Assembly: GCF_035638815.1 (NCBI RefSeq)
Contig: NZ_DASQZG010000005.1
Span: forward strand, 11,613-75,612
Direction of reading: 5' to 3'
Length of the DNA stretch: 64,000 bases
DNA from: Polaromonas sp.
GTDB lineage: Bacteria; Pseudomonadota; Gammaproteobacteria; Burkholderiales; Burkholderiaceae_C
The notes under the pieces were generated by a model. The model had not been told where the DNA came from, searched no databases, and saw only the letters and a program-made list of their open reading frames with translations. Positions 13,078-37,345 of the stretch are shown here, in pieces; position 1 is the stretch's first letter; each line of letters begins with the position of its first letter. Made by a program: the position numbers and the translations under genes.

Positions 13078-13108
13078 CCATTACATGCCCAAAATGATCA
13101 TGTAATGG
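13078..13108. promoter_or_regulatory. inverted repeat in the WYL/Bil divergent promoter (candidate operator)
   Basis: ccattacatg-N11-catgtaatgg, 10-bp perfect arms in an AT-rich stretch 47 nt upstream of the WYL start. Confidence 0.45.
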
Positions 13109-13337
13109 GTTCAATATGATATAGTCACGATATGAATTTGGAAAAGGAGCTAAATAGACGTCAGAAATAAAAAGCGGCCGAGAACAAAGTCCTCGACCGC
13201 CGGGGTGTACACGTAGCTTTCGCAACGGGCACGGTTTCGCAGCCGCCATTGTGTTGCTACTCACTTCGGCCGTCAAGGCTTGCCCCGAAAAGGCCGACCA
13301 GGGCGTCGGAAATTAACCAAAGAAGTGAGCAAACACT

Positions 13338-13646: not shown

Positions 13647-13650
13647 CGCA

Positions 13651-14088: not shown

Positions 14089-14089
14089 A

Positions 14090-14599
14090 ATGGCTCAGAA
14101 AACATGGGACCTGCCGCGCGACCTGCTCGCGCAATCGATCCAGGTTATGCGCCCCTACGGCGCGATCGGTCATGAGGGCTTGGCCCTATGGTTTGGTGAC
14201 GACCGGGGTGATGCGGTGGAGATAACGCACCTGATCGTGCCGCATGGCCCGGGTTTGGTGACGCATCCGTTGCACTTGAGCTTATCGCTGCGGGCCATCG
14301 CGCGGCTCACGGGCCTGTCCGGACGGCTGGATCGCTATTGGGCCGGCCAGATCCACAGTCATCCCGGGGTGGATGTGCGACTTTCAGAAGTTGACAAGAG
14401 GATGGGAGTGCTGGTGCAAGACTACCTCTCCGTGGTTTGCCCGCATTACGCCCAGCAGCCCGTCACCGACCTGCGAGAGTGCGGCATCCACATTTTTGAC
14501 CGCGGTGCCTACCGCCAACTTGCACCAGCGGAAGTGGGCGCGCGCATTCATGTGAGCGAACGTACCGTAGAGGTCGTCCCGGTGGAGGTACCAGCATGA
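14090..14599 (+). CDS. bilC: JAB/MPN (JAMM) metallo-isopeptidase (BilC-like)
   Basis: ATG 14090 after AGGGAGGGG. Upstream Glu (GHEGLALWF) plus exact JAMM motif HSHPGVDVRLSEVD (HxHx7Sx2D). Confidence 0.85.
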   Translation: MAQKTWDLPRDLLAQSIQVMRPYGAIGHEGLALWFGDDRGDAVEITHLIVPHGPGLVTHPLHLSLSLRAIARLTGLSGRLDRYWAGQIHSHPGVDVRLSEVDKRMGVLVQDYLSVVCPHYAQQPVTDLRECGIHIFDRGAYRQLAPAEVGARIHVSERTVEVVPVEVPA

Positions 14600-16134: not shown

Positions 16135-16283
16135 GGTCATTGGCCTTGTGGGGCTGACGGGGGTTAGCCCCGTGCGAAAGTGCGTCATGCGGACCTGCTC
16201 GCTACACGCGACGAATTGCGCCAACCGCTCTGTCGCCGCCATGCCGGAGCTACGTAAGGTCGCAGCCCGCGCTCGGCTAGCCA

Positions 16284-17480
16284 GTGGCCATTGAGCGTCG
16301 TGAGAAACGAAGCCCTACGACGCTGGCGCCGGGCATTACACTTGCAGGCTGGCCCAACCCCTACATGCGTCCACTCGCCTACAACCCAAAATACGCGCTC
16401 AACGCCATCTGTCCTTACTTCACGATGTTTCCGCTGGAGTACCCGCTAAGGGTACTTAGGAAGCATCGCAAGGATGCTCCGGTGGTGATTGACCCGTTCT
16501 GTGGTCGTGGCACGACGTTATTTGCAGCGCGGGCAATGGGACTTAAAAGTTGGGGAATCGATGCATCGCCCGTTGCGGTGGCGATTGCCAGGGCCAAGCT
16601 TTCCAATGCGACGGCCGATGAGGCGCTGAGCCTCGCTGGTTTCCTCGTTGCTGGGGTCAGGCCTGCGCACACGCCGAACAGTAAATTCTTCAGGAAAGCT
16701 TTTCACAAAAACACGCTTCGCGGCATTTGCGCCCTGCGAGAAGGGCTGAGTGCGGGCCTTCAGGACACTGATGCTTCAGTTCTCCTGCGGGCAGCTGTAC
16801 TGGGCTGCTTACACGGCCCCCTTTTGAAGAGCGGTCTGGCCTCGTATTTCTCGAATCAGATGCCGAGGACATTTGCGCCGAAGCCAGACTACGCGCTGAA
16901 GTTTTGGAGCGCGCGTCACATGGAGCCTCCCGAAGTGGATGTGCTCAAAGTACTCGAGCGAAAACTAAAGCTCATCGCCTCTTCGCGGGAACTGCAGAAG
17001 GCGCGCTTCACCAATGTGATCCACGGAGACTCCACCGTGGCCGCGTCATTGCCCAAAAAACGCGACTACTCATTGGTCGTGACCTCACCGCCTTACTACG
17101 GGATGCGTACCTATGTTCAGGACCAATGGCTGCGCAATTGGTTCTTGGGAGGGCCCGCGACAGTTGATTACGCAGCGGGCGTCCAGCTCGAGCACACCGG
17201 TACCGATGTGTTTGCCGAGTCGCTTGGCAAAGTGTGGAAGAACATGGCACGCACCGAAGCGGACACCCTCGACTTGTACGTGCGTTTTGGTGTGATTCCT
17301 TCGGCGAAGGTGGACGCTAAAGAGCTTGTCGAACGTTCGCTGGAAGCCGCGAATTCAGGTTTGCGCGTACTGTCTTGGCGCAACGGTCTTTCTGCGACTT
17401 CCGGCAAACGGCAGGCAGATCAGATGAAGGCGGATTCAGGAGCTTGTGACGAGTTCGACTTCCATATCGTTCGCCACTGA
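16284..17480 (+). CDS. DNA amino-methyltransferase (N6-adenine or N4-cytosine)
   Basis: SAM motif I DPFCGRGTT near the N-terminus and catalytic motif IV TSPPYYGMRTY about 195 aa later. Start uncertain (GTG 16284 or ATG 16365; no clear RBS). Confidence 0.75.
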   Translation: MAIERREKRSPTTLAPGITLAGWPNPYMRPLAYNPKYALNAICPYFTMFPLEYPLRVLRKHRKDAPVVIDPFCGRGTTLFAARAMGLKSWGIDASPVAVAIARAKLSNATADEALSLAGFLVAGVRPAHTPNSKFFRKAFHKNTLRGICALREGLSAGLQDTDASVLLRAAVLGCLHGPLLKSGLASYFSNQMPRTFAPKPDYALKFWSARHMEPPEVDVLKVLERKLKLIASSRELQKARFTNVIHGDSTVAASLPKKRDYSLVVTSPPYYGMRTYVQDQWLRNWFLGGPATVDYAAGVQLEHTGTDVFAESLGKVWKNMARTEADTLDLYVRFGVIPSAKVDAKELVERSLEAANSGLRVLSWRNGLSATSGKRQADQMKADSGACDEFDFHIVRH

Positions 17481-18683
17481 GGCGGTCGATTGCTTCCTGC
17501 CAGCATAGGCGCGAACCAGTCCATCGAGGCTGCAATGAAGTCCAGCGGCCTTTAACCGTTTCTTGCGCTTGCTGAACAATGTCGCAAGGAGCGGTTGCTT
17601 CTCGGCCGGCGTGCCGCGGTGGATTCGCGCGTGGCACATCGGGCACAGCGCCACCACATTGGCGGGCACGTCAAGACTGGCGTGTGAGTACCGATGCTGA
17701 TGGTGGAGCGGGATGACGTGATGCGCCTCGACATAGTGCCTATGAGTCGAGGCGGCTATGAACAGCTGATTCCCGCAATCAGCTTCGCATGTGTGCTCAA
17801 CGGAAACGATAGCTGTTGCTGCAACGGAAGGATCCCGGTCGTAGACGGTGACCCACGTCGATCGCTTTGGTGGTGGAGGAACGGGAATGTCATACAAGGG
17901 CCCGCTGAGCTGAAGCTTCGCCGCGCGCTCTACCACTTCCGCTTGGAATATGGCTTCGTTCATTCGACCTCGTGCCTCGGCAATGCCGGCCAAATCGCCG
18001 GCTACTCCGGAGGGTATTGCCGCATACACATCCAGGATCTTCTCAACGGCATTCCGCAGGTCCACTGGAAAATTTGAGTCAATGGATGCGAGGTCGAACT
18101 TGCGGCTCAGGATGGCGCCGCGTTCGTAGGCTTTCCCATACCGCATCCTCGCGGAGAGCTCGATCCGGCCAGGTGCAAAGCCCTGAGGGGCCGGCAGACC
18201 ATCGGCGGTTTCGCCGGCAACCAATTCGACCGCTTCCAATACTTCGAGTCCCTCGAATCGATTCTCGAACTGCGCAATCCCTTGGTTGAGCGAGAGCCAC
18301 AGCGATTTGCAATTCTCATCGAACAGAAACGCCAGATACACCCCGCGCGTGGGCGTGGTCGTCACATCCTTGCGCATGACCATCACGTAAGGGATGAGGG
18401 TGTAGCGGCGACCCTTTTGGCCGGCGGAGGCCTTGATCGAAAGGGAGGGGTGATCTCTGACGGCGGACTCTATCCAGCCCTTGATGCGGTGCTCCAAGGC
18501 AACGACCGACGCCGGCGCCATCGCATCATGAAAGCGCATCGCTTTTGTAACCCGTCCTTCATTGTTGCGCCCTCCGGTGTCCAGTACGTACTGATCACGA
18601 ACGACCTGAACAGCGGCGAGGAACGCAATGTCCGCGACTTCGCCATCATCAGTCGAAATGGACATGGCATAACCCTTGTTCAT
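17436..18683 (-). CDS. DUF3578 (McrB-N-like DNA-reader) - HNH endonuclease
   Basis: DUF3578 signature KASAGQKGRRYTLIPYVMVMRKDVTTTPTRGVYLAFLFDENCKSLWLSLNQG. C-terminal HNH: YVEAHHVIPL...NVVALCPMCHARIH. Alternative start ATG 18665 has a better RBS (AAGGG). Confidence 0.8.
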   Translation of the reverse strand: MNKGYAMSISTDDGEVADIAFLAAVQVVRDQYVLDTGGRNNEGRVTKAMRFHDAMAPASVVALEHRIKGWIESAVRDHPSLSIKASAGQKGRRYTLIPYVMVMRKDVTTTPTRGVYLAFLFDENCKSLWLSLNQGIAQFENRFEGLEVLEAVELVAGETADGLPAPQGFAPGRIELSARMRYGKAYERGAILSRKFDLASIDSNFPVDLRNAVEKILDVYAAIPSGVAGDLAGIAEARGRMNEAIFQAEVVERAAKLQLSGPLYDIPVPPPPKRSTWVTVYDRDPSVAATAIVSVEHTCEADCGNQLFIAASTHRHYVEAHHVIPLHHQHRYSHASLDVPANVVALCPMCHARIHRGTPAEKQPLLATLFSKRKKRLKAAGLHCSLDGLVRAYAGRKQSTASVANDMEVELVTSS

Positions 18684-18692
18684 GAAATTCTG

Positions 18693-21600
18693 TCATCCAT
18701 GCCAACGAGCTTCTACGACGCGAGTGCCACCGCCAACCAAATTCACAACGTGCGTCGAACGCTTGTTGCAAAAGGATTCGAGATATGACTTGATGGCTTT
18801 TGCGGTTTTCAAGGTTTTTCGTTCACTGGGCAGGTGGAATGCCAGCGACTTCGGCATGATTACGATGCATTTCGCTTGAGCCCGAGAGACGGAAACGTTG
18901 ATGCGTTCCAGTTGCAAAAGGAAAAATTCCTCGCCGGCGATGATGTCTACATCACCAACTCCGAATGACACGATGATTGTCTGGCGCTGACCTCCCTGAA
19001 ACTTCTCCACGGTATCAACCGCTTCAGCGATGTCGTTGCGAGTCAGCAGCGGAAAAAGCGAAGATAGCTCGGAAATAATGAGCGCTCGTTGCGCCTTATG
19101 GGGCGTGACGATACCCACTACATTCTCAAGAAGCTCCTTAGGCGTGGGAGCGGCATGCAGCTTCCCAGCATTGAGCGGTTCGAGCTGGGTCGACATGGTC
19201 TTGTACAAACCCCACACCAAGGCCGCGACCATCTTCGCTTCGTGCAGGTTCGCTTGCGAGGCCGTGTCATCTTCATGGATAAGAGTACAGACTGCCTTGC
19301 CGGGAGCGAGCAGAGTTTCCCATGCGTCAGAGGTTGGTAGTGAAGCTGGAAGTCCAGCCATTGCGGCCTTGATGTCGAATAGCTGATGCAATCGCAAGGT
19401 GGGCTGAGCTGATGTGAGCTTCGGAGGATAGTCCAGTGTGAGGGCGAAGTCGACGATGTCTTGATTTGACCGGTAGTTGGTTAGCAGTGGAAGCTCCGCC
19501 ACATTGAAACGCTCGGTGAAATAAGCTTGAATGCTGCCAACGAGATACTCCGAGCCGACCGGGGGATCCAAAGCAGCGATTGGCGGCATTTGCTTCGTGT
19601 CGCCAGCGATGATGAGTTGACTTTCGTCCTTCAGGGTGGCGAGTGGCAAAAGGGCGAGCGTGACAGGGACTTGTGAACTCTCGTCAATAATCGCGATGTC
19701 GAACACGGGGGCAAGAACTGCGACTGCGTCGGCGAGCTCTGCAACTTTTCGGGAAGCATGTGCAGAGGTCGCCACCAGGGTGACGCGCTGGTCAGATAGC
19801 AGACTCGTTCTCAACTGTGCGTATGAAGGTGTTCCTTGCCTTAACGACACGTTCGCGCCGGCAATGTGCGCGGGAAGCAATGGTGAGGGGGGCAATTCGC
19901 GCGACTTCGAGTACGCTCTGAAGAAATCGCATGCAGCGCCACATTGCATGGCCAGAACGCCGAGCGCACGATCCGCCAGCTCCTCAACTGCCCGGTAGTT
20001 CGGACCAGTCAGGAGGACTTTGAGTGGCTTCTTCGCTTGGTTGGCTTCGAGCACCATTGCTGCCACCATCGCAGCCAAGGTGTCGGTCTTGCCCGTGCCT
20101 GGCGGTCCCCAGATCAAGCTTAAGGCGGCTCGCGCAGCGCCTTTAACAGCGTCGTATTGGCTATCGTTGAGCGGTGGGTTCGAGATACCTTTGGCGACAT
20201 TCGCGAGTGTGGTTGCGGCAACCGGTGTACGTCGTGCAGTCTTGGCGAGAGAAGTTGCATCCCACAGTATTTGCGATAGCGTTGTCTGAGGCCCAGTTCC
20301 GGATTTGACGGCCTTTCCCGCCTTGCCAAGAGCCTGAATAGCGTTAGGGTCTGGTTTGGCGTTTTTGGGGTCACCTACGGCATTGAGGACCTCGTCTATT
20401 TCACGCGTTGGATCGTAGGGTGGGCCTTGCAAGAGATACAGGCGCTCAGAAGCAATATTGACCACAGTCGGATGCATGGCTGCGGTAAACAAAGCATCTA
20501 CCCCGGGCCAACTCGCTGCAAACTCCACTTCGGCCAGGCCGGTGGTTCGGTCGAGGGACAGTAGTTGGGCACGAACGATTCTGTGCATCGCAATACCCAA
20601 AACCTTTGCTTCCAAGCTAGGGTCGATCGCCTGAAGGTCGAGGGAGTAACCGTTTTCGAGTGGGAAACCAGGCCGGCTCTCCACGCCGAGCGTGAGGTAA
20701 GCGTTCGGGGCTTCGATCTTCGCTTCAAGAGAGTCAGGACTCACCTTGAATCGGTAGCGTCTGCCCCCGAGATGACTCAACATCTGATCGAGGACGATTG
20801 CTTCGTATCTCGATTCCAGCCCTTCAAGTGGAGCTGCCAAGGCGGCACCAGCCAAAGTGACGGCGGTGGCATGGTCCAACGCGGCCCAACGAGCCCAGAG
20901 TTGTGAATCAAAGGCCAGCGACTTCGAAGTCCCAACCCCGGACAGTTTCAGTCGGCTCACCTTCCCTTTGATCGATGCCTTGAAGTCATGGTCTAGCCGT
21001 GCAACGATGGAGGTCAAGCTATAAGCCATTCCCCGAAGGTGCTTGCAATATCGATCCACGGCGTCGGATAGGCTTTGCTTGTAGGTAGCCCCCCACTCAA
21101 CCACACCGCTTGTGTTTGTCCAGATCTCGAACGTTCGCTCGCGTGGAATTCCGTTTGAAAGCGGCTCTGAGTGAAAGCTGTCGAACTTCAGAGGCGGCAG
21201 GGAAGTGTGCGAGTACTCTCGATTCGTTGCCAGGAGCGTGTAAACGTGTGGCACGGGCAAGTGCATCGCCAGTTCCACGACTTCTTGGATGAATACGATT
21301 GCCGGTGACACGGCGCCGTCTTCTCGCTCTAACAAGGCCTCGGCGGGAAAAAGCCAGGCAAGCGCTCGCTGTTTGGTGTCTTTCAGACCTAACACTCGGG
21401 GAAGATGTCGGCCGAACGCTTTGCACAGCTCCTCGTATTGCCTGAACTCCCAGAAGTAGATTTGTGCGTAGGGCAACTTGGGACTTGCGACCCCGGGTTC
21501 TGCCAACGAAGCCGCCTCCAAGGCGCTGCTAGCCAAGTCATCAATGAACTTGCTCAGCATCATCCATTCCGCATCGTCGTTGTCCCGCTCGACCATATGC

Positions 21601-22961
21601 CCTGTGTATTTCAGATGCGTGAGCGTCCCTGCGCTGCCCCATTTCGGTAGGTAGTCGGCTCGATATCCAATGCCAGTAAGCCGACCTGCCGACGGATCGA
21701 AAGTCACGACCACACTGGCTCGCAGCTCCACACCTTTGCCGATGGTATTGAGCTTGACCGAAGGGCCCACGGCGGCCAGATTGGTGATGAGCGACCCAGC
21801 TCGGCTCGCGAGCGAGTTGCGGTTGCGCTTAAGGAAGGAGTGCTGCGAAAAGGTGGGTGCTGTGGGAGCAAGGGTTTTTAACGCGTGGACGTTCTTGGTT
21901 CCACTGTTCTCCAGCACACGCCGTGCGCCTCGCGAGAGGCTGGCAATCTGGCTCAGGTGACCGGATCCCTTCGCTGCGGGCACGCAGTATCTGTCAGGAC
22001 TTGCATTGAAAATAGCCAAGTCGGCGGGTGACAACCAGTCCTGGAAGCCCAGCCAATCACAAGCGTTGCAGCGATTCCCGACGTGGTAGTCAACGGCCTG
22101 CCATCCGGCCTTGTCGCCAAGCCGCACTACGCGCGGTACGTCCTCCGCAAAGAACTTCTTGACGCTGGGCATGAACTGCAGAAAGTCCACTTCCTCTTTG
22201 CTCAGGTCCCGGACGAGCGCATGGATCAGATCTGATTTGAGTGCAGTGGGTTGCGCTTTGTACAAAGCGTCGAACTCCGTGAGAAAAGGTGTCGTCCAGA
22301 GGTACGTTTTCTCAGACACGTAGTACTTATCCTCCAGGCCATGCGCCTCAAGCCAATTCGCCAGGATGACGGCGTACATGCAGACCTCCGCCGCATAGCT
22401 CGCATTGCCCTCGGTGACATTCTTAAGATCTATCACGCAGAGCGCTTGGCGGGTATCCCCTGGCTCGATGCGCTTGCGGCCTCCGCTGCACGTTGCCTGC
22501 CACTCCCCTGGCGATGCGGCATCCACCAGCACAATGTCAGGGCGCATACCGGACAGTGGTGGGATGAGGTGCTGATCTCCTGGGGCGACGCTCAAATTGT
22601 CAAAGATCCGCTGGCGAAGCGGTTCAGGCTCAATGGCAGGCTGAATGCACAGAGTTGTCCCGGTGATCGTGGGCAGCTCTTTCAATAAGTCGACGTCCGC
22701 GAAGTTGGGTCGATGTCTTACCTCTTTGCCCAGCCTTGTGACAAGCATCTGGAACTGGTCTTTTTCGAACCGGTCACCGGCACCGGTCACTAGCTGAACG
22801 TTTTGACGCGATTTCAGGGGTGCAGGCAGCCCCGCCGCGGCAATCTCTGCTGGTTTGCCTCTAAATAAAGACAGATACAGTTCCCGATCGCACTGGGTGC
22901 GCAGGAACATGGAAAGCTTCGATTTCGACAAGTGCCTGGGTGGCATCGGTACTGTTGTCAA
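18693..22961 (-). CDS. 1422-aa fusion: N-terminal Cas4/RecB-like PD-(D/E)xK nuclease, central region (possibly degenerate RNase H-like), C-terminal Upf1/Dna2-like SF1B helicase
   Basis: TTG start 8 nt after AGGAGG. Nuclease motifs MRPDIVLVD, CVIDLKNV, YAAEVCMYAV plus Cys cluster (QCDRE, NRCNACDW, RYC). Helicase motifs GPPGTGKT, IIDESSQV, GDTKQMPP, TNYRSNQDIV, VTPHKAQ, VEKFQGGQRQTIIVS, NVSVSRAQAKCIVI. Confidence 0.8.
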   Translation of the reverse strand: MTTVPMPPRHLSKSKLSMFLRTQCDRELYLSLFRGKPAEIAAAGLPAPLKSRQNVQLVTGAGDRFEKDQFQMLVTRLGKEVRHRPNFADVDLLKELPTITGTTLCIQPAIEPEPLRQRIFDNLSVAPGDQHLIPPLSGMRPDIVLVDAASPGEWQATCSGGRKRIEPGDTRQALCVIDLKNVTEGNASYAAEVCMYAVILANWLEAHGLEDKYYVSEKTYLWTTPFLTEFDALYKAQPTALKSDLIHALVRDLSKEEVDFLQFMPSVKKFFAEDVPRVVRLGDKAGWQAVDYHVGNRCNACDWLGFQDWLSPADLAIFNASPDRYCVPAAKGSGHLSQIASLSRGARRVLENSGTKNVHALKTLAPTAPTFSQHSFLKRNRNSLASRAGSLITNLAAVGPSVKLNTIGKGVELRASVVVTFDPSAGRLTGIGYRADYLPKWGSAGTLTHLKYTGHMVERDNDDAEWMMLSKFIDDLASSALEAASLAEPGVASPKLPYAQIYFWEFRQYEELCKAFGRHLPRVLGLKDTKQRALAWLFPAEALLEREDGAVSPAIVFIQEVVELAMHLPVPHVYTLLATNREYSHTSLPPLKFDSFHSEPLSNGIPRERTFEIWTNTSGVVEWGATYKQSLSDAVDRYCKHLRGMAYSLTSIVARLDHDFKASIKGKVSRLKLSGVGTSKSLAFDSQLWARWAALDHATAVTLAGAALAAPLEGLESRYEAIVLDQMLSHLGGRRYRFKVSPDSLEAKIEAPNAYLTLGVESRPGFPLENGYSLDLQAIDPSLEAKVLGIAMHRIVRAQLLSLDRTTGLAEVEFAASWPGVDALFTAAMHPTVVNIASERLYLLQGPPYDPTREIDEVLNAVGDPKNAKPDPNAIQALGKAGKAVKSGTGPQTTLSQILWDATSLAKTARRTPVAATTLANVAKGISNPPLNDSQYDAVKGAARAALSLIWGPPGTGKTDTLAAMVAAMVLEANQAKKPLKVLLTGPNYRAVEELADRALGVLAMQCGAACDFFRAYSKSRELPPSPLLPAHIAGANVSLRQGTPSYAQLRTSLLSDQRVTLVATSAHASRKVAELADAVAVLAPVFDIAIIDESSQVPVTLALLPLATLKDESQLIIAGDTKQMPPIAALDPPVGSEYLVGSIQAYFTERFNVAELPLLTNYRSNQDIVDFALTLDYPPKLTSAQPTLRLHQLFDIKAAMAGLPASLPTSDAWETLLAPGKAVCTLIHEDDTASQANLHEAKMVAALVWGLYKTMSTQLEPLNAGKLHAAPTPKELLENVVGIVTPHKAQRALIISELSSLFPLLTRNDIAEAVDTVEKFQGGQRQTIIVSFGVGDVDIIAGEEFFLLQLERINVSVSRAQAKCIVIMPKSLAFHLPSERKTLKTAKAIKSYLESFCNKRSTHVVNLVGGGTRVVEARWHG

Positions 22962-23579
22962 TTGCCTTTCCTCCTTTGGGCCCCATCAGCACGTTCGCAT
23001 CGAAGCTGGCGCTCAGTGTACTGCCACGTTGCATTCGCTTACACGACTGACAGGGGCGAGTGAATGCCGCTGGGTGTTCGCCGTCAGCCCGCTTTCATTC
23101 CACTATTGCGCCTCCCAATGGCTTCCCTCCTGCAATTAGAGGAGGTCGGCAATACCGCCTACTAAAGAGCGCTTTGTTTGTATGCTCGTGGCTTGTCTAC
23201 TATGGGTAATAAGGATGTTCATGCGAAGCCCAACCGCAGTGCCGCCGAAGGCCCCAACCTTCGAGCGCCAGTATCCGCGCCCGGTCACTAGAAAGCGCCG
23301 CGGCGCATGCAATGGTCACTAGCTTGGCCAACAAGGTCAAGATACGGCAGGATTCTCGGGTGCGTCGATAGTTGCGAAAAATTGCCGAGCAATAAACCGT
23401 GAGAGAAATCCGCCTCTACTGGGCCGACCATGTAGGTCATCATGAAGACCAACTAAGGAGCGGTGGCATTTGGATCCCAGTAAGCGAAGCAGCGCCGCGA
23501 CCTTCAAATTGTCACTGAGGCTGGCAACGAGATCTACGGCGCTGGCTCGCATTTGGCGGAATAACGCGAGGCGTAGAAC

Positions 23580-24359
23580 CTAAACCTGCTTGGCCAGGAA
23601 TTCTGTGAAGGTGGAAAAAGAGCGCTGTCCTTTTGCAGTATTAAGTTTGGCCAAGATTGTCTTGGCAATGCGCTGTTGCAGATAGGCGCACAGCGGTTCA
23701 AACTTCTCAATGGGCAGCAGCTTCCACGGCGACCCGAACTGAGTTTCAATATTCACTGACAGGACTCCGTAGCTGAACTTTTTAGTCCGGGTCTTGTCGG
23801 CACTTGCAAATTCGTTGTACCGCTTGATCAAATACTGCACGTAGCGGCTCAACTGCTGGTCCGCACCGATCGTGCCGTGTGGCGCATTCACCAGAACAGA
23901 ACGACGGCTGGTCTTCACAGTGACTGTATGGGCCTGTATCGCTCCAGGACTGTTGATCGCGACATAGCCCGTGTTGTTGATGACAGTGATTCGCTTCAGA
24001 TCATTTAAAAGAATTTTCGCGAAGAAGGCGTCAGTTGGTTGCTCGGGCCGACCCGCAACGCCCTCGTGAATGGTTTTTATTTCCTGAAGGGCATCGACGC
24101 TGTAAAGCTCTGGCTCGGAATCCACAACCTTGTGATGATGTCTGCATAAAAGGATCAGGTTGGCGAAGTCATGTCGAGCCTCCTCAGCTTGCGCAGGATC
24201 AAACCGAGGGCCTCCATGTCTTCTGGCTTTGATGTGGCAGATTTCCCCGGTTACGGTGCCGGCGCTCTCAACAATGGGAAGCGCGCAGCCGGGATAAGCG
24301 CAAACATTGCCGGAAAGCGCGAACAGGCGCTTGATGGTCTTGTCGCTAGGTTCTGCCAA
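23580..24359 (-). CDS. HNH endonuclease with uncharacterised C-terminal domain
   Basis: N-terminal HNH core: NVCAYPGC...EICHIKARRHGGPR...NLILLCRHHHKVVD. Confidence 0.75.
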   Translation of the reverse strand: MAEPSDKTIKRLFALSGNVCAYPGCALPIVESAGTVTGEICHIKARRHGGPRFDPAQAEEARHDFANLILLCRHHHKVVDSEPELYSVDALQEIKTIHEGVAGRPEQPTDAFFAKILLNDLKRITVINNTGYVAINSPGAIQAHTVTVKTSRRSVLVNAPHGTIGADQQLSRYVQYLIKRYNEFASADKTRTKKFSYGVLSVNIETQFGSPWKLLPIEKFEPLCAYLQQRIAKTILAKLNTAKGQRSFSTFTEFLAKQV

Positions 24360-26117: not shown

Positions 26118-26623
26118 AGATTCGCGCTCGATCAGTCTCTAAGGAGATTTAATAATCGCAGCCAATTCCGCGCCTCATTTATCAAGAGTTCTGCCTCTGG
26201 ATCACTAGCCGACCTGTCGGTGACGTCCGCCCAGTCAGTTGACTTGCATCAAGTTGAAATTTTCTCCGAGCACCGGGCGCTCCCCGAATACCCCGATCAA
26301 CCGCGATTCGAGCAGTTCGCGATGCTATTGCCCACGGATGCTTCTCAGACAATGACATCCACCGCACCTAAGAACCGACCAAGGATCTCATAGTAAGAGA
26401 CATAAAACTGCCTGCCGGATAGCTCCGCGCCGGAGCCATGCCTGCCCCGCAACGCATTTTGAAGAGGTCCGATTCAGCGTTTTGGGTTCTACTGCTGGAA
26501 TGCCAGACCCTACAACCGAGTTGCAGCGACCTGAATAACGCTTTGTCTGCGTCCCGGCGTATCGCCGTCGGGCTCTCGGACTTTGTCCCGCACCTTCCGG
26601 TCGCGGCCTGCGGGCTTTGATCC

Positions 26624-26856
26624 CTGACGCCTGTGCCAGCCTTGCTGGCTGCGCGCTGCGCTTGCCACGGTCAGTGAGTGAAGGGGTGGGTTCGCTGTTC
26701 CCTCCAACCTATCACGCCGTTCTCGTGGTCAAGGTCTGCACACCCGTGCTTCGCTCGTGCGTTTGCGTCCTTGCGGCCGTCTTCGAACCTTGACAACTGC
26801 GCTGCGCCGTGCCGGTGCCGGTCTCGGGCAATCCCGCCCGGATCAAGGAGTCGACC
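26624..26856 (+). promoter_or_regulatory. conserved ~230-nt non-coding leader, copy 1 (upstream of radC)
   Basis: Shares long identical blocks with 31233-31458: ctgacgcct, tcgaaccttgac, ctgcgctgcg, the 21-mer ccggtctcgggcaatcccgcc (26818-26838) and caaggag-N-gaccATG. No ORF. Confidence 0.6.
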
Positions 26857-27366
26857 ATGTCGCATGATTTTTCTTCCTTCAATTCCTTCGCACTTTTTGT
26901 CCGGGACGTTACGGGCACATATCGCGAAGCCCAAACCGATGAAGTGCTTCAAGCTGCTCAAAGTATGCTCCTAAGCCGGGTGCGCAACACCGAAGTATTT
27001 ACCTCCCCGCAAGCAGTTCGGGATTTTCTGCGGGTTCGTCTGAGTGCCTTGGAGCACGAGATTTTTGCGGTGCTGCATCTGGATGCACAGAACCGAGTGC
27101 TTGAATACGTGGAGATGTTTCGAGGCACTGTGTCGCAAACTTCGGTGTATCCGCGCGAGGTGGTCAAGGAAAGTCTGGCACGCAACAGTGCGGCAGTCAT
27201 CCTGGTACACAATCATCCGAGCGGAGCAGCTCAACCTTCGCGGGCCGACGAAGCGCTGACGCAAACACTCAAAGCAGCACTTTCGCTGGTGGACGTTCGG
27301 GTGCTGGATCATCTGATCGTCGCAGGAGCGGATGTCGTCTCTTTTGCTGAAATGGGACTGCTCTAG
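26857..27366 (+). CDS. radC: RadC-family JAB domain protein
   Basis: ATG 26857 after AAGGAG. JAMM motif HNHPSGAAQPSRAD; C-terminal VLDHLIV. Confidence 0.9.
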   Translation: MSHDFSSFNSFALFVRDVTGTYREAQTDEVLQAAQSMLLSRVRNTEVFTSPQAVRDFLRVRLSALEHEIFAVLHLDAQNRVLEYVEMFRGTVSQTSVYPREVVKESLARNSAAVILVHNHPSGAAQPSRADEALTQTLKAALSLVDVRVLDHLIVAGADVVSFAEMGLL

Positions 27367-27404
27367 TCCCAGGGGCCACAGCCCCTTTTTTAGCCACCGA
27401 GGCC

Positions 27405-27623
27405 TCACTCGGCCGTGTGGATCTCTACCGATGCGTCTTTCTCCACTTTCACAGGAGTCAGCCAGGCCGCCGCAGCTTCTTCTGGTGGCATCGCGCGCAA
27501 TTGCACGTCTTGCCATAGGTCCACCGCCAGCTCCTCCAATTGAGCCGGCTCGACGGTGCGCCAGTGCTGGTGGAGCCGACCGGCGCACTGGGCAATCCAC
27601 TGGGTGGGCAGGAGAGTATCCAT
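27405..27623 (-). CDS. hypothetical protein (72 aa)
   Basis: ORF with plausible composition; start uncertain, no clear RBS. Confidence 0.35.
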   Translation of the reverse strand: MDTLLPTQWIAQCAGRLHQHWRTVEPAQLEELAVDLWQDVQLRAMPPEEAAAAWLTPVKVEKDASVEIHTAE

Positions 27624-27884
27624 AGGTAAATCATACTGTACATCCATACAGTTCGCAAGTACCATGGCTTGCCATTTAGATACCAGAGCACGAAGCATGA
27701 GTCCCTCCCCCCACCTCCGCGCAGCCATTCAAGCTGCGCCTCCATTTCTACCGCCGCGCCCGGTGCGCACCCTGGTCTGGCCTTTCATCATCGGCCGCAA
27801 GCCAGCGGCTGTTTGTCCCATTCGTGCCCGCGCTGCAGCGGTCATCGCCACCACCGCCAGGCACTGGTTATCCTCTGTCGAGTC

Positions 27885-28460
27885 ATGACAGTCGGCTATT
27901 CACTTGCCTTGTTTTCTCGCCCTTTCGCAGAGCGGTCCTGGACCCGCCCATCCCGCATGTGGATCGGCTTGATCCTGGCGATTGGCTCGCTGGTGGCCAG
28001 CGCAGGAACCATCACCGGAAAGGTTGTGGGCGTGACCGATGGCGACACCCTCACGGTCCTGGATGCGAACGATCAGCAGTTCAAGATCCGCTTGTCTGGC
28101 ATCGATGCGCCTGAGAGAGGACAGCCTTTTGGAAACCGGGCCAAGGAATCACTAAGCGAGATGGTGTTCAACAAACAGGTGGTTATCGAATTCAGCAAGG
28201 AGGACCGGTACCGGCGCAAGGTCGGCAAGGTACAGCACGAGGGCACGGACGTGAATCTTGAACAGGTCAAGAAAGGAATGGCCTGGCACTACACCGCCTA
28301 TGCGAAGGAGCAAGCGCCGGCAGATCGCGAAGCGTATGCGAGTGCCGAAGCAGAGGCCAGGGCTCAGCGCCGCGGCCTCTGGCGGGAGCCCATTCAGGCG
28401 GCGCCGTGGGAGATTCGGCGGATCAAGGCCGCAGTCCGGGAAGTGCCCGAAAGGAATTAA
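27885..28460 (+). CDS. thermonuclease (staphylococcal nuclease-like), membrane-anchored or secreted
   Basis: ATG 27885. N-terminal hydrophobic segment, SNase blocks GKVVGVTDGDTLTVL, IRLSGIDAPE, GMAWHY. Confidence 0.85.
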   Translation: MTVGYSLALFSRPFAERSWTRPSRMWIGLILAIGSLVASAGTITGKVVGVTDGDTLTVLDANDQQFKIRLSGIDAPERGQPFGNRAKESLSEMVFNKQVVIEFSKEDRYRRKVGKVQHEGTDVNLEQVKKGMAWHYTAYAKEQAPADREAYASAEAEARAQRRGLWREPIQAAPWEIRRIKAAVREVPERN

Positions 28461-28705
28461 GCCGCGCCTACTGCGTCCCTGACGCATTTCTTGCTGAAGC
28501 TGTTCTTGGCTGCACCGGAGAGCTTCTTCTCTTTGCTGGCGATATCGCACTTGGCGGCCGCATCTTTCTCGCACTTTTTGAGGAAAGAAGTTTTGGCGGC
28601 GCCGGACAACTTTTTCTCAGTTGCATTGGCGGTGCAGGTGGCGTCTTGAGCGAAGGCCGAACCAGCGAAGCCCAGAATGGTGATCACGATAAGTTTCTTG
28701 AACAT
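28457..28705 (-). CDS. PsiF-repeat secreted protein
   Basis: ATG 28705 after AAGGAG. Signal peptide, duplicated KKLSGAAK(T/N)SF(L/S)KKC repeat. Confidence 0.7.
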   Translation of the reverse strand: MFKKLIVITILGFAGSAFAQDATCTANATEKKLSGAAKTSFLKKCEKDAAAKCDIASKEKKLSGAAKNSFSKKCVRDAVGAA

Positions 28706-29088
28706 GAATGCTCCTTGTGAAACCCGAACAGCGAATCGGGTTAGCCACTGTAGCGCATGCGCTCGGAGCGCACGCATCTCTCCCAAGGGCTTTACGCCCC
28801 ACCGGACCTCAGATGCTCCTCAATCTCATGCATTTGCGCATTGAGATAAACCAGGCGATGAACTTAGGAAAACGGCGGCAACGGCGCCCAGCTCAGGTCA
28901 CTCGCCGAACCCACCGCAGCCAATATCGGTCCCCGAATTTGGAATCTGGCTGCACGGCGTGACGCCCTACGCCAGCGCTCGCTGCGGTGGGTTGGGAATG
29001 CCTACCGGACACCGGAGCATCGAACACCACCGATCAACGGCAATCCAGCGCGTTGATCGAGTTTTCGACAACATCACCCGGATACCCT

Positions 29089-29538
29089 ATGAACCACCAA
29101 GGCGTCAGCGAAATATTCTTTGAAGAGTCCTACACAGTGCCAGCGGACCAGACGGCTAAGTCGCTTTTTTCGCGGCTTCCTCACGGAAGCGGATACGCAG
29201 AGCGGCTGGTCGAATGTCTTGCCACCGGGTACCTGGTAGCGGTGGTTGAATCTATTTGCATTCGTGAGATGCAGCAGCACGTCGATGCCGCCGCTGAAGT
29301 GGTGGTCGGCCGTTCGATCCGCATCGACCATCGAGGGCCGATCCCGCCGGGGTCTCCGCTTCGGCTGCGCGGATGGCTGGAACGGCTGGGAGACCGGAGC
29401 GCCACATTCCGCGTGCAAGTCCACGACGCACACGAAGTCGTCTGCGAGGCCACTGTCACGCTGGTGGCCGCACAGCGGACACTTCTGGAGTCGCGCATTG
29501 CGACAAAGGTTCAGGCACTCCAATGCCCTGGCACCTAA
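29089..29538 (+). CDS. hotdog-fold thioesterase (FlK-like)
   Basis: ATG 29089. Pattern LATGYLVAVVESICIREM and length fit the small thioesterase family. Confidence 0.55.
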   Translation: MNHQGVSEIFFEESYTVPADQTAKSLFSRLPHGSGYAERLVECLATGYLVAVVESICIREMQQHVDAAAEVVVGRSIRIDHRGPIPPGSPLRLRGWLERLGDRSATFRVQVHDAHEVVCEATVTLVAAQRTLLESRIATKVQALQCPGT

Positions 29539-30129
29539 GAAAAGCGCGTCCCGCTGGTAGCGGAGCGCGGGGTACAACTCAACTGCTGCGCTCGAATGTC
29601 ATGAGCGCCGGTCCGAGTAAATCCTGCGGGCAGGCTACCGTGACGATGGCGGCTCGGCGAGGGCCTTCCCGCTTGCACTTCCTTCCACGCCAAAGATGCC
29701 GACCGCTGGCCAGCGCCGATGCGGCGGGATCGTTCCTTCTGATCTCTTTGTCAGCCGACATGGACCTGAACTGCGACAGGGGCCTGCCGGAACGCTGTTG
29801 CAGCGGTGACGGTGCTGGGGCCATGCGTCCTTTCCCCACAGGATCACACCCACAACGGCCTTGTATTTGTCGTGAATCCTGGCTCGGGCACGGCGGTGTT
29901 GCACTTCGTTTCGCACTGCCTCGGGCTTTTTCGCCGCAACCGTCCAGCCCAACAAATTTCCCCGACCTGCGGTCTTCCTCGCGAGGCAAATTTCTCGGGC
30001 CTCCCGGTCCTTCACTGCGTTACGGCCCCTCCGCTTCGCTGTGGGATGCGGCGCGCCCGGACCCTCACCCATCGGATCACGCCAAGGCCGCGATGGGCGC
30101 GACCTGGTTAACTTCAAAAGGACTTCATC

Positions 30130-30435
30130 ATGGCCAACATCGGCACCTTCACCGCACAGAACGACAGCTATACCGGCACGGTTCGCACCCTGACGCTCAA
30201 CGTCAAGGTCAAGATCGTTCCCAACAACAAGGAGAGCGAGAACGCTCCGGACTACCGCATCGTCGCTGGCAACTTCGAAATCGGCGCGGCGTGGAAGAAA
30301 GTGAGCAAATCGGATCGCCCCTACCTGTCGGCGACCCTGGATGACCCGTCGTTCCCGGCAACCATCTATGCCCGCCTGGTCGAAGGCGAGGACGGCGCGC
30401 ACAACCTGATCTGGTCGCGCAGCAAGGGTGACTGA
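30130..30435 (+). CDS. DUF736 protein (conserved ICE/plasmid small protein)
   Basis: MANIGTFTAQNDSYTGTVRTLTLNVKV...PDYRI...IGAAWKK...YLSATLDDPSF is the typical DUF736 pattern. Confidence 0.85.
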   Translation: MANIGTFTAQNDSYTGTVRTLTLNVKVKIVPNNKESENAPDYRIVAGNFEIGAAWKKVSKSDRPYLSATLDDPSFPATIYARLVEGEDGAHNLIWSRSKGD

Positions 30436-30447
30436 GCGTCGCTGTCG

Positions 30448-30474
30448 GCGCCCCGCCACCAGCGGGGCGCTTTC
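30448..30474. terminator. GC-rich hairpin between convergent genes (weak T-tract)
   Basis: gcgccccgc-cacca-gcggggcgc followed by TTTC. Confidence 0.45.
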
Positions 30475-30526
30475 ACGATTCCGCGGATTGAGGTCCGCTA
30501 ACTGCTTCGCTAGCGCTCGATAGTGG

Positions 30527-30964
30527 TCAGTTTGCGAGTTCCGCTATGCGCGAAGTCGCCTCGCGCTTGCCCAGCTTCAATGCAGCGCGCAAAGCCGGGA
30601 GCTGAGAGGCTCTGGGCGTAGCCTTCTGCTGCTCCCACTTGTAAATAGATTGGCCGGAGACGCCGACCAGCACACCCATTTCAGCCGCTGTTATGCCCAG
30701 GCGCTTGCGCTGCGCGGCAAGCCCTGTGGCGCTGAATCGATTTCGCAAGGGCGCCTGCGCCGGATCTACCTGTACCGCTGGGGCCCGGCGGATGCGGGCT
30801 GATCCCTTCGCTGCGCGCTCCAGATCCGTGATGCGACGCTTCAGGGCAGCGATTTCCATCCGATACTGGCTGACGGCTTTTTTCAGTTGGGCGGTTTCTC
30901 CGCGCAGTTCTTTACGAGCAATTCGGGTGATCTCAGCTTTCAAAACGGTCGCGACGTTCATCAA
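30527..30964 (-). CDS. XRE-type HTH regulator with N-terminal coiled coil
   Basis: C-terminal HTH (LGITAAEMGVLVGVSGQSIYKWEQ). Confidence 0.7.
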   Translation of the reverse strand: MMNVATVLKAEITRIARKELRGETAQLKKAVSQYRMEIAALKRRITDLERAAKGSARIRRAPAVQVDPAQAPLRNRFSATGLAAQRKRLGITAAEMGVLVGVSGQSIYKWEQQKATPRASQLPALRAALKLGKREATSRIAELAN

Positions 30965-31232
30965 AAATCCTTTGTTGGTCCGGAATCAATTATCGACTGG
31001 GCTCTTTGGCGCCGATTCGCCTTCACGCTTTTGCGGCTGTACGCTTCTACTGGTACGCGTAATTCCTGAAATGCGCATGCGAGGCTTCAATGAAAGCCGT
31101 ATTCCCAGGTTTGCGTCTATACGGATTTCAGGTTTAGCAAAGGTATGGGCTTGTGCGTCTCCGGCGATGCCGGCCGCGCTGTCGTGCTGCATCGAGCCGC
31201 CCGTGGCGTCTCGCCCCTTCGGGCTTCCATCG

Positions 31233-31458
31233 CTGACGCCTTCGCGCCTATCTGCGCTGCGCACTGCGTTTGCAGGAGCAGAGGCGAGGGCTAGCTTGCT
31301 GTTCACTTACCGTATCACGTCGTTCTCGTCGTTAAGGTCTGCGCGTGCCTTGCACGCTGGCGTCCTGGCGGCCGTCAGTCGAACCTTGACGGCTGCGCTG
31401 CGACGTGCTGCTTCCGGTCTCGGGCAATCCCGCCCTGATTCCTTTCAAGGAGAAGACC
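31233..31458 (+). promoter_or_regulatory. conserved ~230-nt non-coding leader, copy 2 (upstream of DUF2958)
   Basis: See copy 1. The identical 21-mer is at 31414-31434. The gttaaggt/accttgac pairing retains a G-T wobble relative to gtcaaggt/accttgac in copy 1. Confidence 0.6.
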
Positions 31459-31806
31459 ATGACGAAGCTCATCACCGACGAACAACGCGCGCAACTGCTG
31501 GCCAACGGCCGGCAATCCCTCAAACAGGAAAACTTCGATCCCACTCCTGTGGTCAAGCTGTTCACCCCGGACGCTGGGGCGACCTGGCTGCTGGCCGAGA
31601 TCGACCCGGACGACCACGACCATGCGTTTGGGTTGTGCGACCTGGGCCTGGGTTACCCCGAGCTGGGGTGGGTCAGCCTGGCAGAGATCGTGGAGGTGCG
31701 CGGCGGGCTCGGACTTCCGGTGGAACGGGATCTGCACTTCGCACCTCAAAAGCCTCTGAGTGTGCGCGCGCGTGAGGCGCGGTTCGCTGGGCGGGTCGTG
31801 GCTTAG
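31459..31806 (+). CDS. DUF2958 protein
   Basis: ATG 31459 after AAGGAG. Pattern PVVKLFTPDAGATWLLAEIDPDD...AFGLCDLGLGYPELGWVSLAEI. Confidence 0.8.
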   Translation: MTKLITDEQRAQLLANGRQSLKQENFDPTPVVKLFTPDAGATWLLAEIDPDDHDHAFGLCDLGLGYPELGWVSLAEIVEVRGGLGLPVERDLHFAPQKPLSVRAREARFAGRVVA

Positions 31807-31897
31807 CAACCTCCGGTGCCGCCGAAGCGGCGTCCTCAGAAGGGGGAGGCGATCTACATATTTCGTCGGGATCGATGCCTTTCGAAACGGATGCCTA

Positions 31898-32149
31898 CTA
31901 AATGCCCGCAGCCGCGAGAAGCTTTGAGGGCCGAACCCCTAGCGCCTCGGCGATCTTGCTCAGGTTGATGACCGCCACGTTGTGCTCACCCCTCTCGATG
32001 CCGCCCATATACGACCTATCAAGGCCCGCCAGATCAGCCAGCGCCTCCTGGGAGAGATCCTTGGCGGCGCGCGTGCGTCTGATCGCATCACCAAGTGCGG
32101 TGAGGATGGGGTCTTTTGCGAATGACGGAGACGGTTTGGCCACACCCAT
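31898..32149 (-). CDS. XRE-family HTH regulator
   Basis: LSQEALADLAGLDRSYMGGIERGEHNVAVINLSKIAEAL. Confidence 0.8.
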   Translation of the reverse strand: MGVAKPSPSFAKDPILTALGDAIRRTRAAKDLSQEALADLAGLDRSYMGGIERGEHNVAVINLSKIAEALGVRPSKLLAAAGI

Positions 32150-32335: not shown

Positions 32336-32677
32336 ATGACGGTTCTCGCAAACGAGCAACGAAGCCAAATGCTGGCCAACGGTGCCGCGCGGGTACGTGG
32401 GGACACTCTTGACCCCTTGCCCGTGATCAAGCTCTACACGCTGGACGCCGGGGCCGCCTGGCTGCTGACCGAACTTGACGTCGATGGAGACAGAGCGTAC
32501 GGCCTGTGCGACTCTGGTACCGGCAGTCCTGAGTTGGGACATGTCAGCCTCTCGGCCCTCGCACGCGTGCGGGGTCCGCGCGGCATGCGCATCGTGGCTG
32601 ATCCGCACTTTAAAGCGCGCCAGACACTCTCGGGCTATCTGGCCGACGCTCAGCGCGACGGCTCGATCAGCGACTGA
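32336..32677 (+). CDS. DUF2958 protein (paralogue)
   Basis: PVIKLYTLDAGAAWLLTELDVDGDRAYGLCDSGTGSPELGHVSLSAL parallels 31459-31806. Confidence 0.8.
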   Translation: MTVLANEQRSQMLANGAARVRGDTLDPLPVIKLYTLDAGAAWLLTELDVDGDRAYGLCDSGTGSPELGHVSLSALARVRGPRGMRIVADPHFKARQTLSGYLADAQRDGSISD

Positions 32678-32781
32678 CGAGCGTCTTTGAAGCGTCGCTA
32701 TTCGCGCGACGCTCGGTCGCCGCAAAAGCGACCCATACTTTGCACGCCTATGGCAGCGTTCCTCTTTCAAAGGAGGATTTC

Positions 32782-33579
32782 GTGACCGACCCCAACCTCG
32801 AAGACCTGCCCAGCACACCTTGGGGCGTGTCTGCTGCTTATCTCTATCTGCTGGATCTCGATGATTCGGCGCTCGCATGGGAATATTTGCGCCGCCACCC
32901 GGGCTATCGCTTGGATTGGAAACGCCGCAAGCGCGTGGTGTCGTTTGCCCGTTGGGGGTTGCGATATTGCGAAGATCCCGACCTAGACGGACGCCTGGCG
33001 CATCCGCTGTGGCGGTCATCTCCTGACGGGTTGCTGCAGGTGCGTGCTGCGCACGCGCGCAGTGCGGTAACCCGCCGATTCGATCTGTGGCGCATTTCCG
33101 GCCGCAAGCGCCTGGCGCTTGATGGTTCCGACTTGTCGCTGACTACCGACCTCAGTGCGCAGCGCATGCACTTGTCCCTGTCGGGCAGCTTGGCTGACGG
33201 GACCCCTTACGCGGGCGCAGTGCCGCTAACTCGGAACCTGCGTGGCAACTTGGGCACCTTTATCGCACAAGCGCAGGCGCTGGAAGGACACCCCCCGCAG
33301 GTTGACCCCGCACGGGCAGTGTCCCGCGGAGCGCTGCTTCATCTACGCGCCCTGCAAGCGCTCGATGCGGCGCAGGTGGGCGCGTCGCAACGCGACATTG
33401 CCCAGGTCTTGTTCGGTCTGGAAGCCGTAGTCCTACGCTGGCACGAAGACGGGGAACTGCGCGCGCAGGTGCGCCACCTGCTCCGACGGGCCGAGGCGCT
33501 GATGAATGGCGGCTACCTGACCCTTGCGGGTGTTTCGCATCCCGCAACGAACCACCCCGGAGACGAACCGGTGCGCTGA
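32782..33579 (+). CDS. DUF2285/DUF6499-type regulator-like protein
   Basis: GTG 32782 is 6 nt after AAGGAGG. WEYLRRHPGYRLDWKRR motif. Confidence 0.6.
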   Translation: MTDPNLEDLPSTPWGVSAAYLYLLDLDDSALAWEYLRRHPGYRLDWKRRKRVVSFARWGLRYCEDPDLDGRLAHPLWRSSPDGLLQVRAAHARSAVTRRFDLWRISGRKRLALDGSDLSLTTDLSAQRMHLSLSGSLADGTPYAGAVPLTRNLRGNLGTFIAQAQALEGHPPQVDPARAVSRGALLHLRALQALDAAQVGASQRDIAQVLFGLEAVVLRWHEDGELRAQVRHLLRRAEALMNGGYLTLAGVSHPATNHPGDEPVR

Positions 33580-37084: not shown

Positions 37085-37345
37085 GCCTTGCTCTATCGCG
37101 TCATCAAGTACGCCGCCCAACTGCCGCCGGGCATGTGCCCGCGCTGCACTCGGTCGTGCGGGGAGTCCGTCGCCAGCGTGGTGCTCGCGCTGCACCGCCG
37201 CTGCCTCTCGGGCAGCGTTGCGCACCCGGTGCGCGGCTGGCGGCAGGTCGGAGCCGGGAGCGGATGCGGAAGGCGGAGACGGAGGGCCAGATAAAGGGGC
37301 CGGCACGCCGACCCTCGCCGAGCCAGTCTGCACGTGGGTGGGACG

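Follow-up and report, generated by a model that had tools for sequence, protein, structure and literature searches.

The radC motif of Rfam is a conserved non-coding element directly 5' of radC and other DNA-related genes of mobile elements, and it is debated whether elements of this type act as RNA or as single-stranded DNA (ssDNA). Promoters that work on ssDNA are described as the Frpo / ssi class 1 of IncF and IncI1 plasmids (Masai & Arai 1997, as cited in PMC9849209, PMC11541004 and PMC12672017), and so far they have been shown only for these enterobacterial plasmids (PMC9849209, PMC12672017). Three sequence classes are recognised (PMC12672017). Frpo1 and Frpo2 of F are ~92% identical repeats located ~5 kb apart before different leading genes (PMC9849209). 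Promoters of classes 2 and 3 are found in pESBL and F before klcA/ardA and M.EcoGIX, and were defined by RNA sequencing and 5' rapid amplification of cDNA ends (PMC12672017). Here we describe a repeated non-coding cassette in a 64,000-nt stretch of Polaromonas sp. DNA (contig NZ_DASQZG010000005.1, positions 11,613 to 75,612; below, the window). With a probability of roughly 60%, we interpret it as a new class of Frpo/ssi-like ssDNA promoter carried by integrative and conjugative elements (ICEs) of the Tn4371 family and their relatives.

The cassette occurs in two copies, one in front of radC and one in front of a gene for a DUF2958 protein (Table 1). Local alignment defines a homologous non-coding unit of ~310 nt whose collinear copies span 26548-26862 and 31154-31464. 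The covariance model R1, built from relatives, recovers copy 1 at 26661-26861 (160.8 bits) and copy 2 at 31265-31463 (157.5 bits). This model finds no third copy in the 64-kb window, the next match scoring 17.8 bits, and no cassette in front of the second DUF2958 gene, the regulator gene, repA or other genes of the window. The 21-mer CCGGTCTCGGGCAATCCCGCC occurs in the window exactly twice (0 expected, from 100 shuffles). The first-pass annotation of this DNA had noted the collinear repeat correctly but placed its 5' edge ~75 nt too far downstream. The shared blocks that it listed (ctgacgcct, tcgaaccttgac, ctgcgctgcg, the 21-mer and the region of the ribosome-binding site) are all found in both copies, and the copies do reach the start codons of the two genes (ATG at 26857 and 31459), whose identities are confirmed by Pfam. 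The primary sequence is most strongly conserved in ~26683-26856, up to the start codon; the internal-loop sequences TTCTCGCC and CTGCGCTG are near-invariant across the family, and GCGCTGCG-like blocks and TTGCGGCC blocks form direct repeats. Small open reading frames over the cassette (minus strand, 26510-26707 and 30986-31306) were rejected, having unrelated Arg-rich translations and family indels that are not multiples of three.

Like the radC RNA motif, the cassette lies directly 5' of radC and other mobile-element genes, and the first-pass annotation had linked the two. This identity was not borne out. A gathering-score search of the window with Rfam 15 reported a tRNA only, and neither a search of 26300-32000 at E<=10 nor a search of 18 homologous loci assigned the cassette to a family; it differs from the radC motif in sequence and fold. 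Directly 5' of copy 2, the minus strand of 31126-31176 weakly resembles the Rfam COG3860 RNA (17.7 bits against a gathering score of 42.5, E=1.3), which is probably a chance match.

The cassette folds as a single strand, and the fold is under selection. Covariation was counted on 83 distinct members, in an alignment fitted to a model that contains helices Pa through Pd, with P0 outside the model. The helices P0, Pa, Pb, Pc and Pd have 89.7% paired cells, compared with 34-43% for slid partners. Double changes were seen at 24 pairs versus 12.3 in shuffles, and none of 500 shuffles equalled the observed count, so that the covariation check suggested by the first-pass annotation came out positive and its broader claim of a structured single-stranded nucleic-acid element linked to ICE genes holds. 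The covarying helices are P0, Pa, Pb, Pc and Pe. Because they covary, the single strand must fold, which argues against a purely duplex function.

Helix Pa has the consensus CACGNCG/CGNCGTG, with T-A at its covarying position in copy 2, one of the four Watson-Crick types that this position shows; the Pa pairs covary, including the pair at promoter position -12 (AU 46, GC 17). In Pb, with the consensus GTCAAGGT/ACCYTGAC, the terminal pair covaries (GC 38, UA 28, CG 15). The two copies differ here as described earlier, with GTCAAGGT/ACCTTGAC in copy 1 and GTTAAGGT/ACCTTGAC in copy 2. This single G-U-compatible change leaves undecided which strand folds, and the wobble statistics are mixed. P0 is a long-range pairing of GGGCTGGCTTGCY with GGCAATCCCGCCC. 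Since it is absent from the alignment model, it was tested without alignment on diverged members, in which cognate arms pair better than swapped ones (p<0.0005). The Pe hairpin has the consensus NNGGC-AATYCC-GCCNN, with the compensatory variants CAGGC/GCCTG, GCAGGC/GCCTGC, GGCAGGC/GCCTGCC and CCGGC/GCCGG. DNA folding returns Pa in both copies, together with Pb in copy 1 and with P0 in copy 2. Single-sequence folding was set aside as evidence, the RNA z-scores being +0.14 and -1.16 and both RNA and DNA z-scores uninformative.

A promoter-like motif, TTGACG-N12-TG-N-(T/C)A-NNN-T, is near-invariant on the minus strand across the family. Each of TTGAC, TG, A2 and T6 is at least 98% conserved in 102 close members (TTGAC ~99%, TG 99%, A2 98-100%, T6 99%). 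In 47 diverse members, including those from other phyla, the TG is retained in 44, A2 in 46 and T6 in 46, and hexamer positions 3-5 vary freely and are G+C-rich. Judged from the sequences, this pattern reads as that of an extended -10 promoter recognised by sigma-70. A regular expression for the motif, run over 14 kb of the window and 13 kb of pPNAP01, matches nothing but the known copies.

Motif and helices share one register. The -35 element falls in Pb and the TG in Pa, position -12 coincides with a covarying pair, and the -10 hexamer is unpaired in a bubble whose non-template side has 14 nt and whose template side has 12-13 nt (87 members). P0 begins ~8 nt past the hexamer, at about +3. 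As modelled, the folded minus strand resembles an RNA polymerase open complex. A standard scan with 16-18-nt spacers detected no sigma-70-type duplex promoter on either strand around either copy, although activator-dependent promoters or read-through may still supply sense transcripts, and a terminator scan detected no terminators around the copies. By-eye readings of sigma-54 and ECF-type (extracytoplasmic function) sense promoters had wrong spacings and were discarded.

The proposed mechanism is as follows. During conjugation, the minus strand, the template of radC and DUF2958, would enter the recipient as the transferred strand and fold. Pb would then offer a duplex -35 (TTGACG) and Pa the extended -10 TG, paired through -12, with the -10 (WANNNT, with invariant A-11 and T-7) exposed in the pre-opened bubble of ~13-14 nt and duplex DNA brought back by P0 from ~+3. 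Host sigma-70 RNA polymerase could bind this ready-made open complex with no need to melt DNA, read the gene-proximal arm as template, and exit through P0 into radC or DUF2958. Starts are predicted at ~26826 in copy 1 and ~31422 in copy 2, giving a leader of 31-37 nt that would begin with the Pe hairpin, leave the Shine-Dalgarno sequence free and exclude the anti-Shine-Dalgarno sequence. Once the complementary strand is made, the hairpin would be gone, the sense strand lacking a promoter, and in long read-through transcripts the Shine-Dalgarno sequence would be paired. Establishment and anti-defence genes would in this way be expressed briefly, in a burst right after transfer. We infer the use of the cassette by RNA polymerase, the start sites and the activity on the single strand only.

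The computed RNA ensembles are consistent with this scheme. The mean unpaired probability of the Shine-Dalgarno sequence is 0.09 in the full leader RNA versus 0.38 in the RNA from the predicted start, and the short RNA has the more open Shine-Dalgarno in 94% of 106 members, as a shorter RNA is expected to have anyway.

The element in the window is a Tn4371-family ICE with the same layout as in Polaromonas pPNAP01. Its order is tRNA (10164-10236), integrase, a defence-like island, radC, two DUF2958 genes, a DUF2285/FseA-like regulator, repA, parA, DUF2840, traF (S26), a DUF3363 relaxase, traG and trb genes. Protein matches were obtained for the integrase, RPA, ParA, DUF2840, S26, the DUF3363 relaxase, TraG and Trb B, E, L, G and I. 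The origin of transfer (oriT) of ICE-KKS102-Tn4677 has been mapped experimentally to the traF-traI intergenic region (PMC11448139), and relaxase genes are normally in the lagging region, the last to enter (PMC11541004). The cassettes lie 5.7 and 10.3 kb from this intergenic region, opposite to the relaxase gene, and on these grounds would be that far into the leading side. The genes radC and DUF2958 point toward the expected oriT, like the leading genes of F and of pPNAP01. A second DUF2958 paralogue (32336-32677) lies 874 nt after the first, with a 69-nt repeat of 75% identity between them, and has no cassette; a DUF2958 gene without a strong cassette copy is also seen in some related ICEs (our loci L120 and L232).

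The cassette family comprises more than 230 genomic loci and 288 plasmid records, mostly Tn4371-type ICEs. A genome scan with the 21-mer gave at least 118 loci, almost all from Burkholderiales, and a second search pattern, based on another block, brought in diverse members on contigs labelled Nitrospira, Planctomycetaceae, Steroidobacteraceae and Gammaproteobacteria. Among the plasmid carriers are large IncHI plasmids of Enterobacteriaceae in which a Tn4371-like ICE resides. Family members always adjoin a start codon, with the Shine-Dalgarno sequence within the conserved unit. The genes behind them encode RadC, DUF2958, an unnamed 130-aa CxxC protein, Antirestrict (PF03230), DUF932 and SymE-like proteins; apart from the CxxC protein these are classic leading-region types, and several of the families are also present in the F leading region. 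A literature search returned nothing on the pairing of radC with DUF2958 or on the 17-mer. The 130-aa protein (MDDKSHVSLEQQLCLVCG...; e.g. L004:6324-6714, minus strand, and relatives) is a recurrent cargo with no Pfam or NCBIfam match and a candidate establishment or anti-defence gene.

At six loci (L030:1866-4021, L012, L064, L074, L098 and L213:4506-4605) a group II intron of ~2.15 kb is located inside the cassette. It matches Rfam RF02012 and RF00029 and encodes a reverse transcriptase/maturase with no endonuclease domain. In every case the intron occupies the minus strand and separates the -35 from the TG, at ...TTGACGGCGAGAAC^GGCGTG..., and it is found before radC, DUF2958 or the CxxC gene in different genomes. 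It appears to home to the conserved cassette site, splitting the proposed promoter. A second subfamily with a replaced 5' part (L012, L030, L064, L074 and L098) was rejected, the replacement being this intron insertion.

The cassette has much in common with Frpo. Both are non-coding units of ~300 nt whose repeats, spaced by a few kb, precede different genes that point toward oriT; in the ICE these would, as in F, be leading-region genes with the transferred strand as template. In both, a stem-loop rebuilds the -35 and -10, no promoter is expected in the duplex, and antirestriction, DUF932-type and similar genes lie downstream. Unlike Frpo of enterobacterial plasmids, the cassette resides in ICEs whose relaxase is of the MOBP type and whose hosts are Burkholderiales and members of other phyla. 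Its motif is on the gene-distal arm and points to the hairpin base, so that polymerase would leave via P0 and not around the loop; its -10 would lie in a bubble of ~13-14 nt that is already formed and has covarying helices on either side; and it is fused directly to the Shine-Dalgarno sequence and start codon. The F Frpo2 was tried as a geometric control and abandoned, no linear -35/-10 pair being located in it. The argument on the cassette orientation therefore rests on strand logic. The 5' extension of copy 2 (31208-31239) shares a 33-nt block (GTCTCSGCCC..GGGCTTCCATCSCTGACGC) with the left borders of Frpo in the F plasmid (NC_002483, locus L119 in our set; 6141-6173 for Frpo2 and 11529-11561 for Frpo1), with 85% identity and E=3e-4 (nhmmer E=0.008 and 0.011).

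The ssDNA promoters of classes 2 and 3 are non-homologous hairpin promoters before leading-region operons and show that such promoters come in several sequence classes; those classes are known from mapped transcripts, whereas the cassette is known from sequence alone. Two further systems resemble it in part. Fork-junction and bubble templates are laboratory constructs in which polymerase binds a duplex ending near -12 with a single-stranded non-template -10, and the single-strand origins (sso) of rolling-circle plasmids and ICEBs1 are strand-specific hairpins where polymerase starts and makes replication primers. Neither system takes the form of a repeated expression cassette joined to genes.

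The helices might instead belong to the sense strand, as a structured, cis-regulatory and riboswitch-like 5' leader RNA that hides the ribosome-binding site. In detail, Pa, Pb, Pc and Pd would form a three-way-junction sensor, TTCC/CTCC just 3' of Pa would pair with the Shine-Dalgarno sequence around Pe, and P0 would be an alternative pairing in a translation switch that a protein, a small RNA or a ligand would operate. We consider this leader, in outline and in these details, unlikely, yet it is the main rival of the promoter reading and a serious one. Covariation is blind to strand and would suit it equally, as would the constant fusion of a conserved unit that contains the Shine-Dalgarno to a start codon, the invariant internal-loop nucleotides, typical of RNA tertiary or ligand sites, and the precedent of the Rfam radC motif before radC-type genes, even though no Rfam family matches here. 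The Shine-Dalgarno is ~91% paired in the predicted full-leader ensemble, and the anti-Shine-Dalgarno helix, with its G.U pairs, is far more stable in the sense strand (-17.5 versus -12.8 kcal/mol). The swap test of this helix, however, was rejected as evidence, the effect being only 1 kcal/mol (-17.5 versus -16.5 kcal/mol) with little covariation, and single-sequence RNA folds are no better than shuffles. A leader RNA also lacks an upstream sense promoter in either subfamily by the standard scan, and it requires a symmetric 14 x 13-nt loop to spell by chance an extended -10 in register with an opposite-strand -35. Among non-Watson-Crick states in Pa and Pb, the two most frequent are sense-strand A.C, that is, G.T in the minus strand; this state dominates Pa and the internal pair of Pb (51 of 83 members) and favours the minus strand. 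As a strand test the counts of G.U versus A.C were nevertheless discarded, being mixed, dominated by few sites and partly biased by the RNA-model alignment. The ssDNA promoter and a leader RNA that hides the Shine-Dalgarno could coexist.

Two other explanations concern the DNA itself. The hairpin could be a single-strand initiation or origin signal that recruits polymerase mainly for a complementary-strand primer and not for gene expression, a role proposed for Frpo and sso elements. Its anatomy would be the same, several copies per element would make several priming sites, and Frpo is described as both promoter and primer source (cited in PMC12672017); the fusion at fixed distance to the Shine-Dalgarno and start codons of at least six gene families points to expression as the selected output and makes a predominantly priming role improbable, although the two roles are not exclusive. 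Least probable of all is an ordinary duplex feature copied as a unit in front of several genes, either a minus-strand promoter that fires in the direction opposite to the gene and yields antisense or divergent RNA, or operators for the DUF2285/FseA-like protein or TraR. The minus-strand -35, TG and -10 are indeed legible in duplex DNA too, and the direct repeats of GCGCTGCG-like and TTGCGGCC blocks accompany a DUF2285 regulator encoded nearby. Yet a duplex feature has no need for complementarity between arms 85-140 nt apart, and Pa, Pb and P0 covary. Past the minus-strand promoter there is no conserved product, the open reading frames there being unrelated low-complexity artefacts in the most variable stretch, and the G+C-rich -10 interior and the 15-bp spacer would make a poor duplex promoter.

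The Frpo-like ssDNA promoter, which the first-pass annotation had named as an alternative, is thus the better supported by anatomy and context: the -35, TG and -10 are conserved on the presumed transferred strand, the hairpin has an open-complex-like bubble, and the position would be on the leading side. Several observations weigh against it. The spacer between -35 and -10 is 15 nt on the motif arm, short for sigma-70, and 17-18 nt on the opposite arm. P0 is a weaker pairing in copy 1 than in the bulk of the family, and minimum-energy folding of the DNA recovers the proposed structure only in some cases and with unremarkable z-scores. In Pc, sense-strand G.U outnumbers A.C by 10 to 2, as a leader RNA would have it, and the 3' helix that surrounds the Shine-Dalgarno is rich in sense-strand G.U. 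The near-invariant internal loops TTCTCGCC and CTGCGCTG are unexplained by a promoter spacer, and the 5' extension has no role in the model. Transfer polarity, with the minus strand as the transferred one, would follow for Tn4371-family ICEs from the general relaxase-last rule. Homology to Frpo across the hairpin was not found beyond the 33-nt border block, and the covariance model scores Frpo at <=10.6 bits. Weak collinear resemblances elsewhere in F (L119 2009-2054 and 5196-5231), namely TTCTCGCCGTCAA...GACGGCTGCG in front of the leading-region methylase gene and GGCAATGCCGCCC..GGAG..ATG directly in front of the klcA-like DUF1380 gene, are not significant alone (E 0.2-2.5).

Table 1. Positions of the cassette copies, their structural and promoter-like elements, and associated genes in the window.
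Feature	Position	Strand	Remarks
Cassette copy 1	26548..26856	+	Stops at radC start codon; local alignment with copy 2
Cassette copy 2	31154..31458	+	Stops at DUF2958 start codon; local alignment with copy 1
5' extension, copy 1	26600..26666	+	Conserved in type-I subfamily
Small hairpin plus ATCCCTGACGCC, copy 1 5' extension	26600-26632		
Covarying hairpin P1, GCCAGC-CTT-GCTGGC, copy 1 5' extension	26635-26649		
TGCGCGCTGCGCTTGCC, copy 1 5' extension	26650-26666		
P0 left arm, copy 1	26684..26696		Pairs with 26827-26839; proposed downstream duplex from ~+3
P0 left arm, copy 2	31288..31300		Pairs with 31423-31435; seen in minus-strand DNA minimum-energy fold
Pa left arm, CACGCCG, copy 1	26713..26719		Pairs with 26805-26811 (CGCCGTG); one C.C mismatch
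Pa left arm, CACGTCG, copy 2	31316..31322		Pairs perfectly with 31401-31407 (CGACGTG)
Pb left arm, GTCAAGGT, copy 1	26728..26735		Pairs with 26787-26794 (ACCTTGAC)
Pb left arm, GTTAAGGT, copy 2	31331..31338		Pairs with 31383-31390 (ACCTTGAC)
Pc tip hairpin, copy 1	26738..26760		Strongest covariation, four pair types
Pe hairpin, TCGGGC-AATCCC-GCCCGG, copy 1	26824..26841	+	At 5' end of predicted short mRNA
Pe hairpin, copy 2	31420..31437	+	Predicted by register with copy 1
-10-like hexamer TAGGTT, copy 1	26706..26711	-	Unpaired in model
Extended -10 TG, copy 1	26713..26714	-	Inside Pa
-35-like hexamer TTGACC, copy 1	26727..26732	-	Inside Pb
Promoter-like motif, copy 2	31309..31335	-	TTAACG 31330-31335, TG 31316-31317, TACGGT 31309-31314
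Template-side bubble, copy 1	26812..26826		Counted from -10 and Pa; predicted start ~26825-26827 within 21-mer
Predicted transcription start, copy 2	~31421-31423		Predicted by register with copy 1
Shine-Dalgarno AAGGAG and radC start codon	26845..26859	+	AAGGAG 26845-26850; start codon 26857-26859
radC (RadC-like JAB domain)	26857..27366	+	Pfam RadC 9.3e-44; gene behind copy 1
DUF2958 gene	31459..31806	+	Pfam 1.2e-42; gene behind copy 2
DUF2285/FseA-like regulator	32740-33579		
traF-traI intergenic region	37085..37333		Expected oriT; between S26/TraF and relaxase genes

Elsewhere in the window, the interval between the integrase gene and radC holds the defence-like island (12102-24359), which encodes a WYL-domain protein, a ThiF-like protein, a DNA methylase, an MrcB_N-HNH protein, a 1422-aa AAA_11/AAA_12 helicase and an HNH protein. 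Inverted repeats cluster 3' of the trb genes (57319-57572), with a perfect 21-nt spacerless palindrome at 57443-57484 and 51-nt arms at 57319-57369 and 57522-57572; the matches of this cluster to the covariance model are weak and at chance level. Upstream of the tRNA and the ICE, inverted repeats at 2022-2197 and 5045-5137 (53-56 nt, 85-93% complementary) bracket ~2.9 kb, which could be a small mobile or repeat-bounded unit.

A bolder version of the proposal, which we advance tentatively and at slightly less than even odds, is that the cassettes form a widespread, previously unrecognised class of ssDNA promoters that present a ready-made open complex and also silence read-through mRNA by pairing of the Shine-Dalgarno. 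The genes behind them would be expressed only seconds to minutes after ICE entry, and the 33-nt block would imply an ancestry or module common with Frpo of F. A covariance model is now at hand for annotating the cassette family. If the ssDNA-promoter reading is true, the bubble would be a natural analogue of fork-junction templates and offer a structural prediction for RNA polymerase on ssDNA, and the cassette could be searched for as a marker of leading regions and of transfer polarity in cases where the oriT is unknown. RadC, DUF2958 and the unnamed 130-aa CxxC protein would be flagged as likely establishment or anti-defence factors. Zygotic early expression would then extend to integrative elements, to Beta- and Gammaproteobacteria and beyond, among them the Tn4371-type elements that spread catabolic and resistance genes, including copies in large clinical IncHI plasmids.

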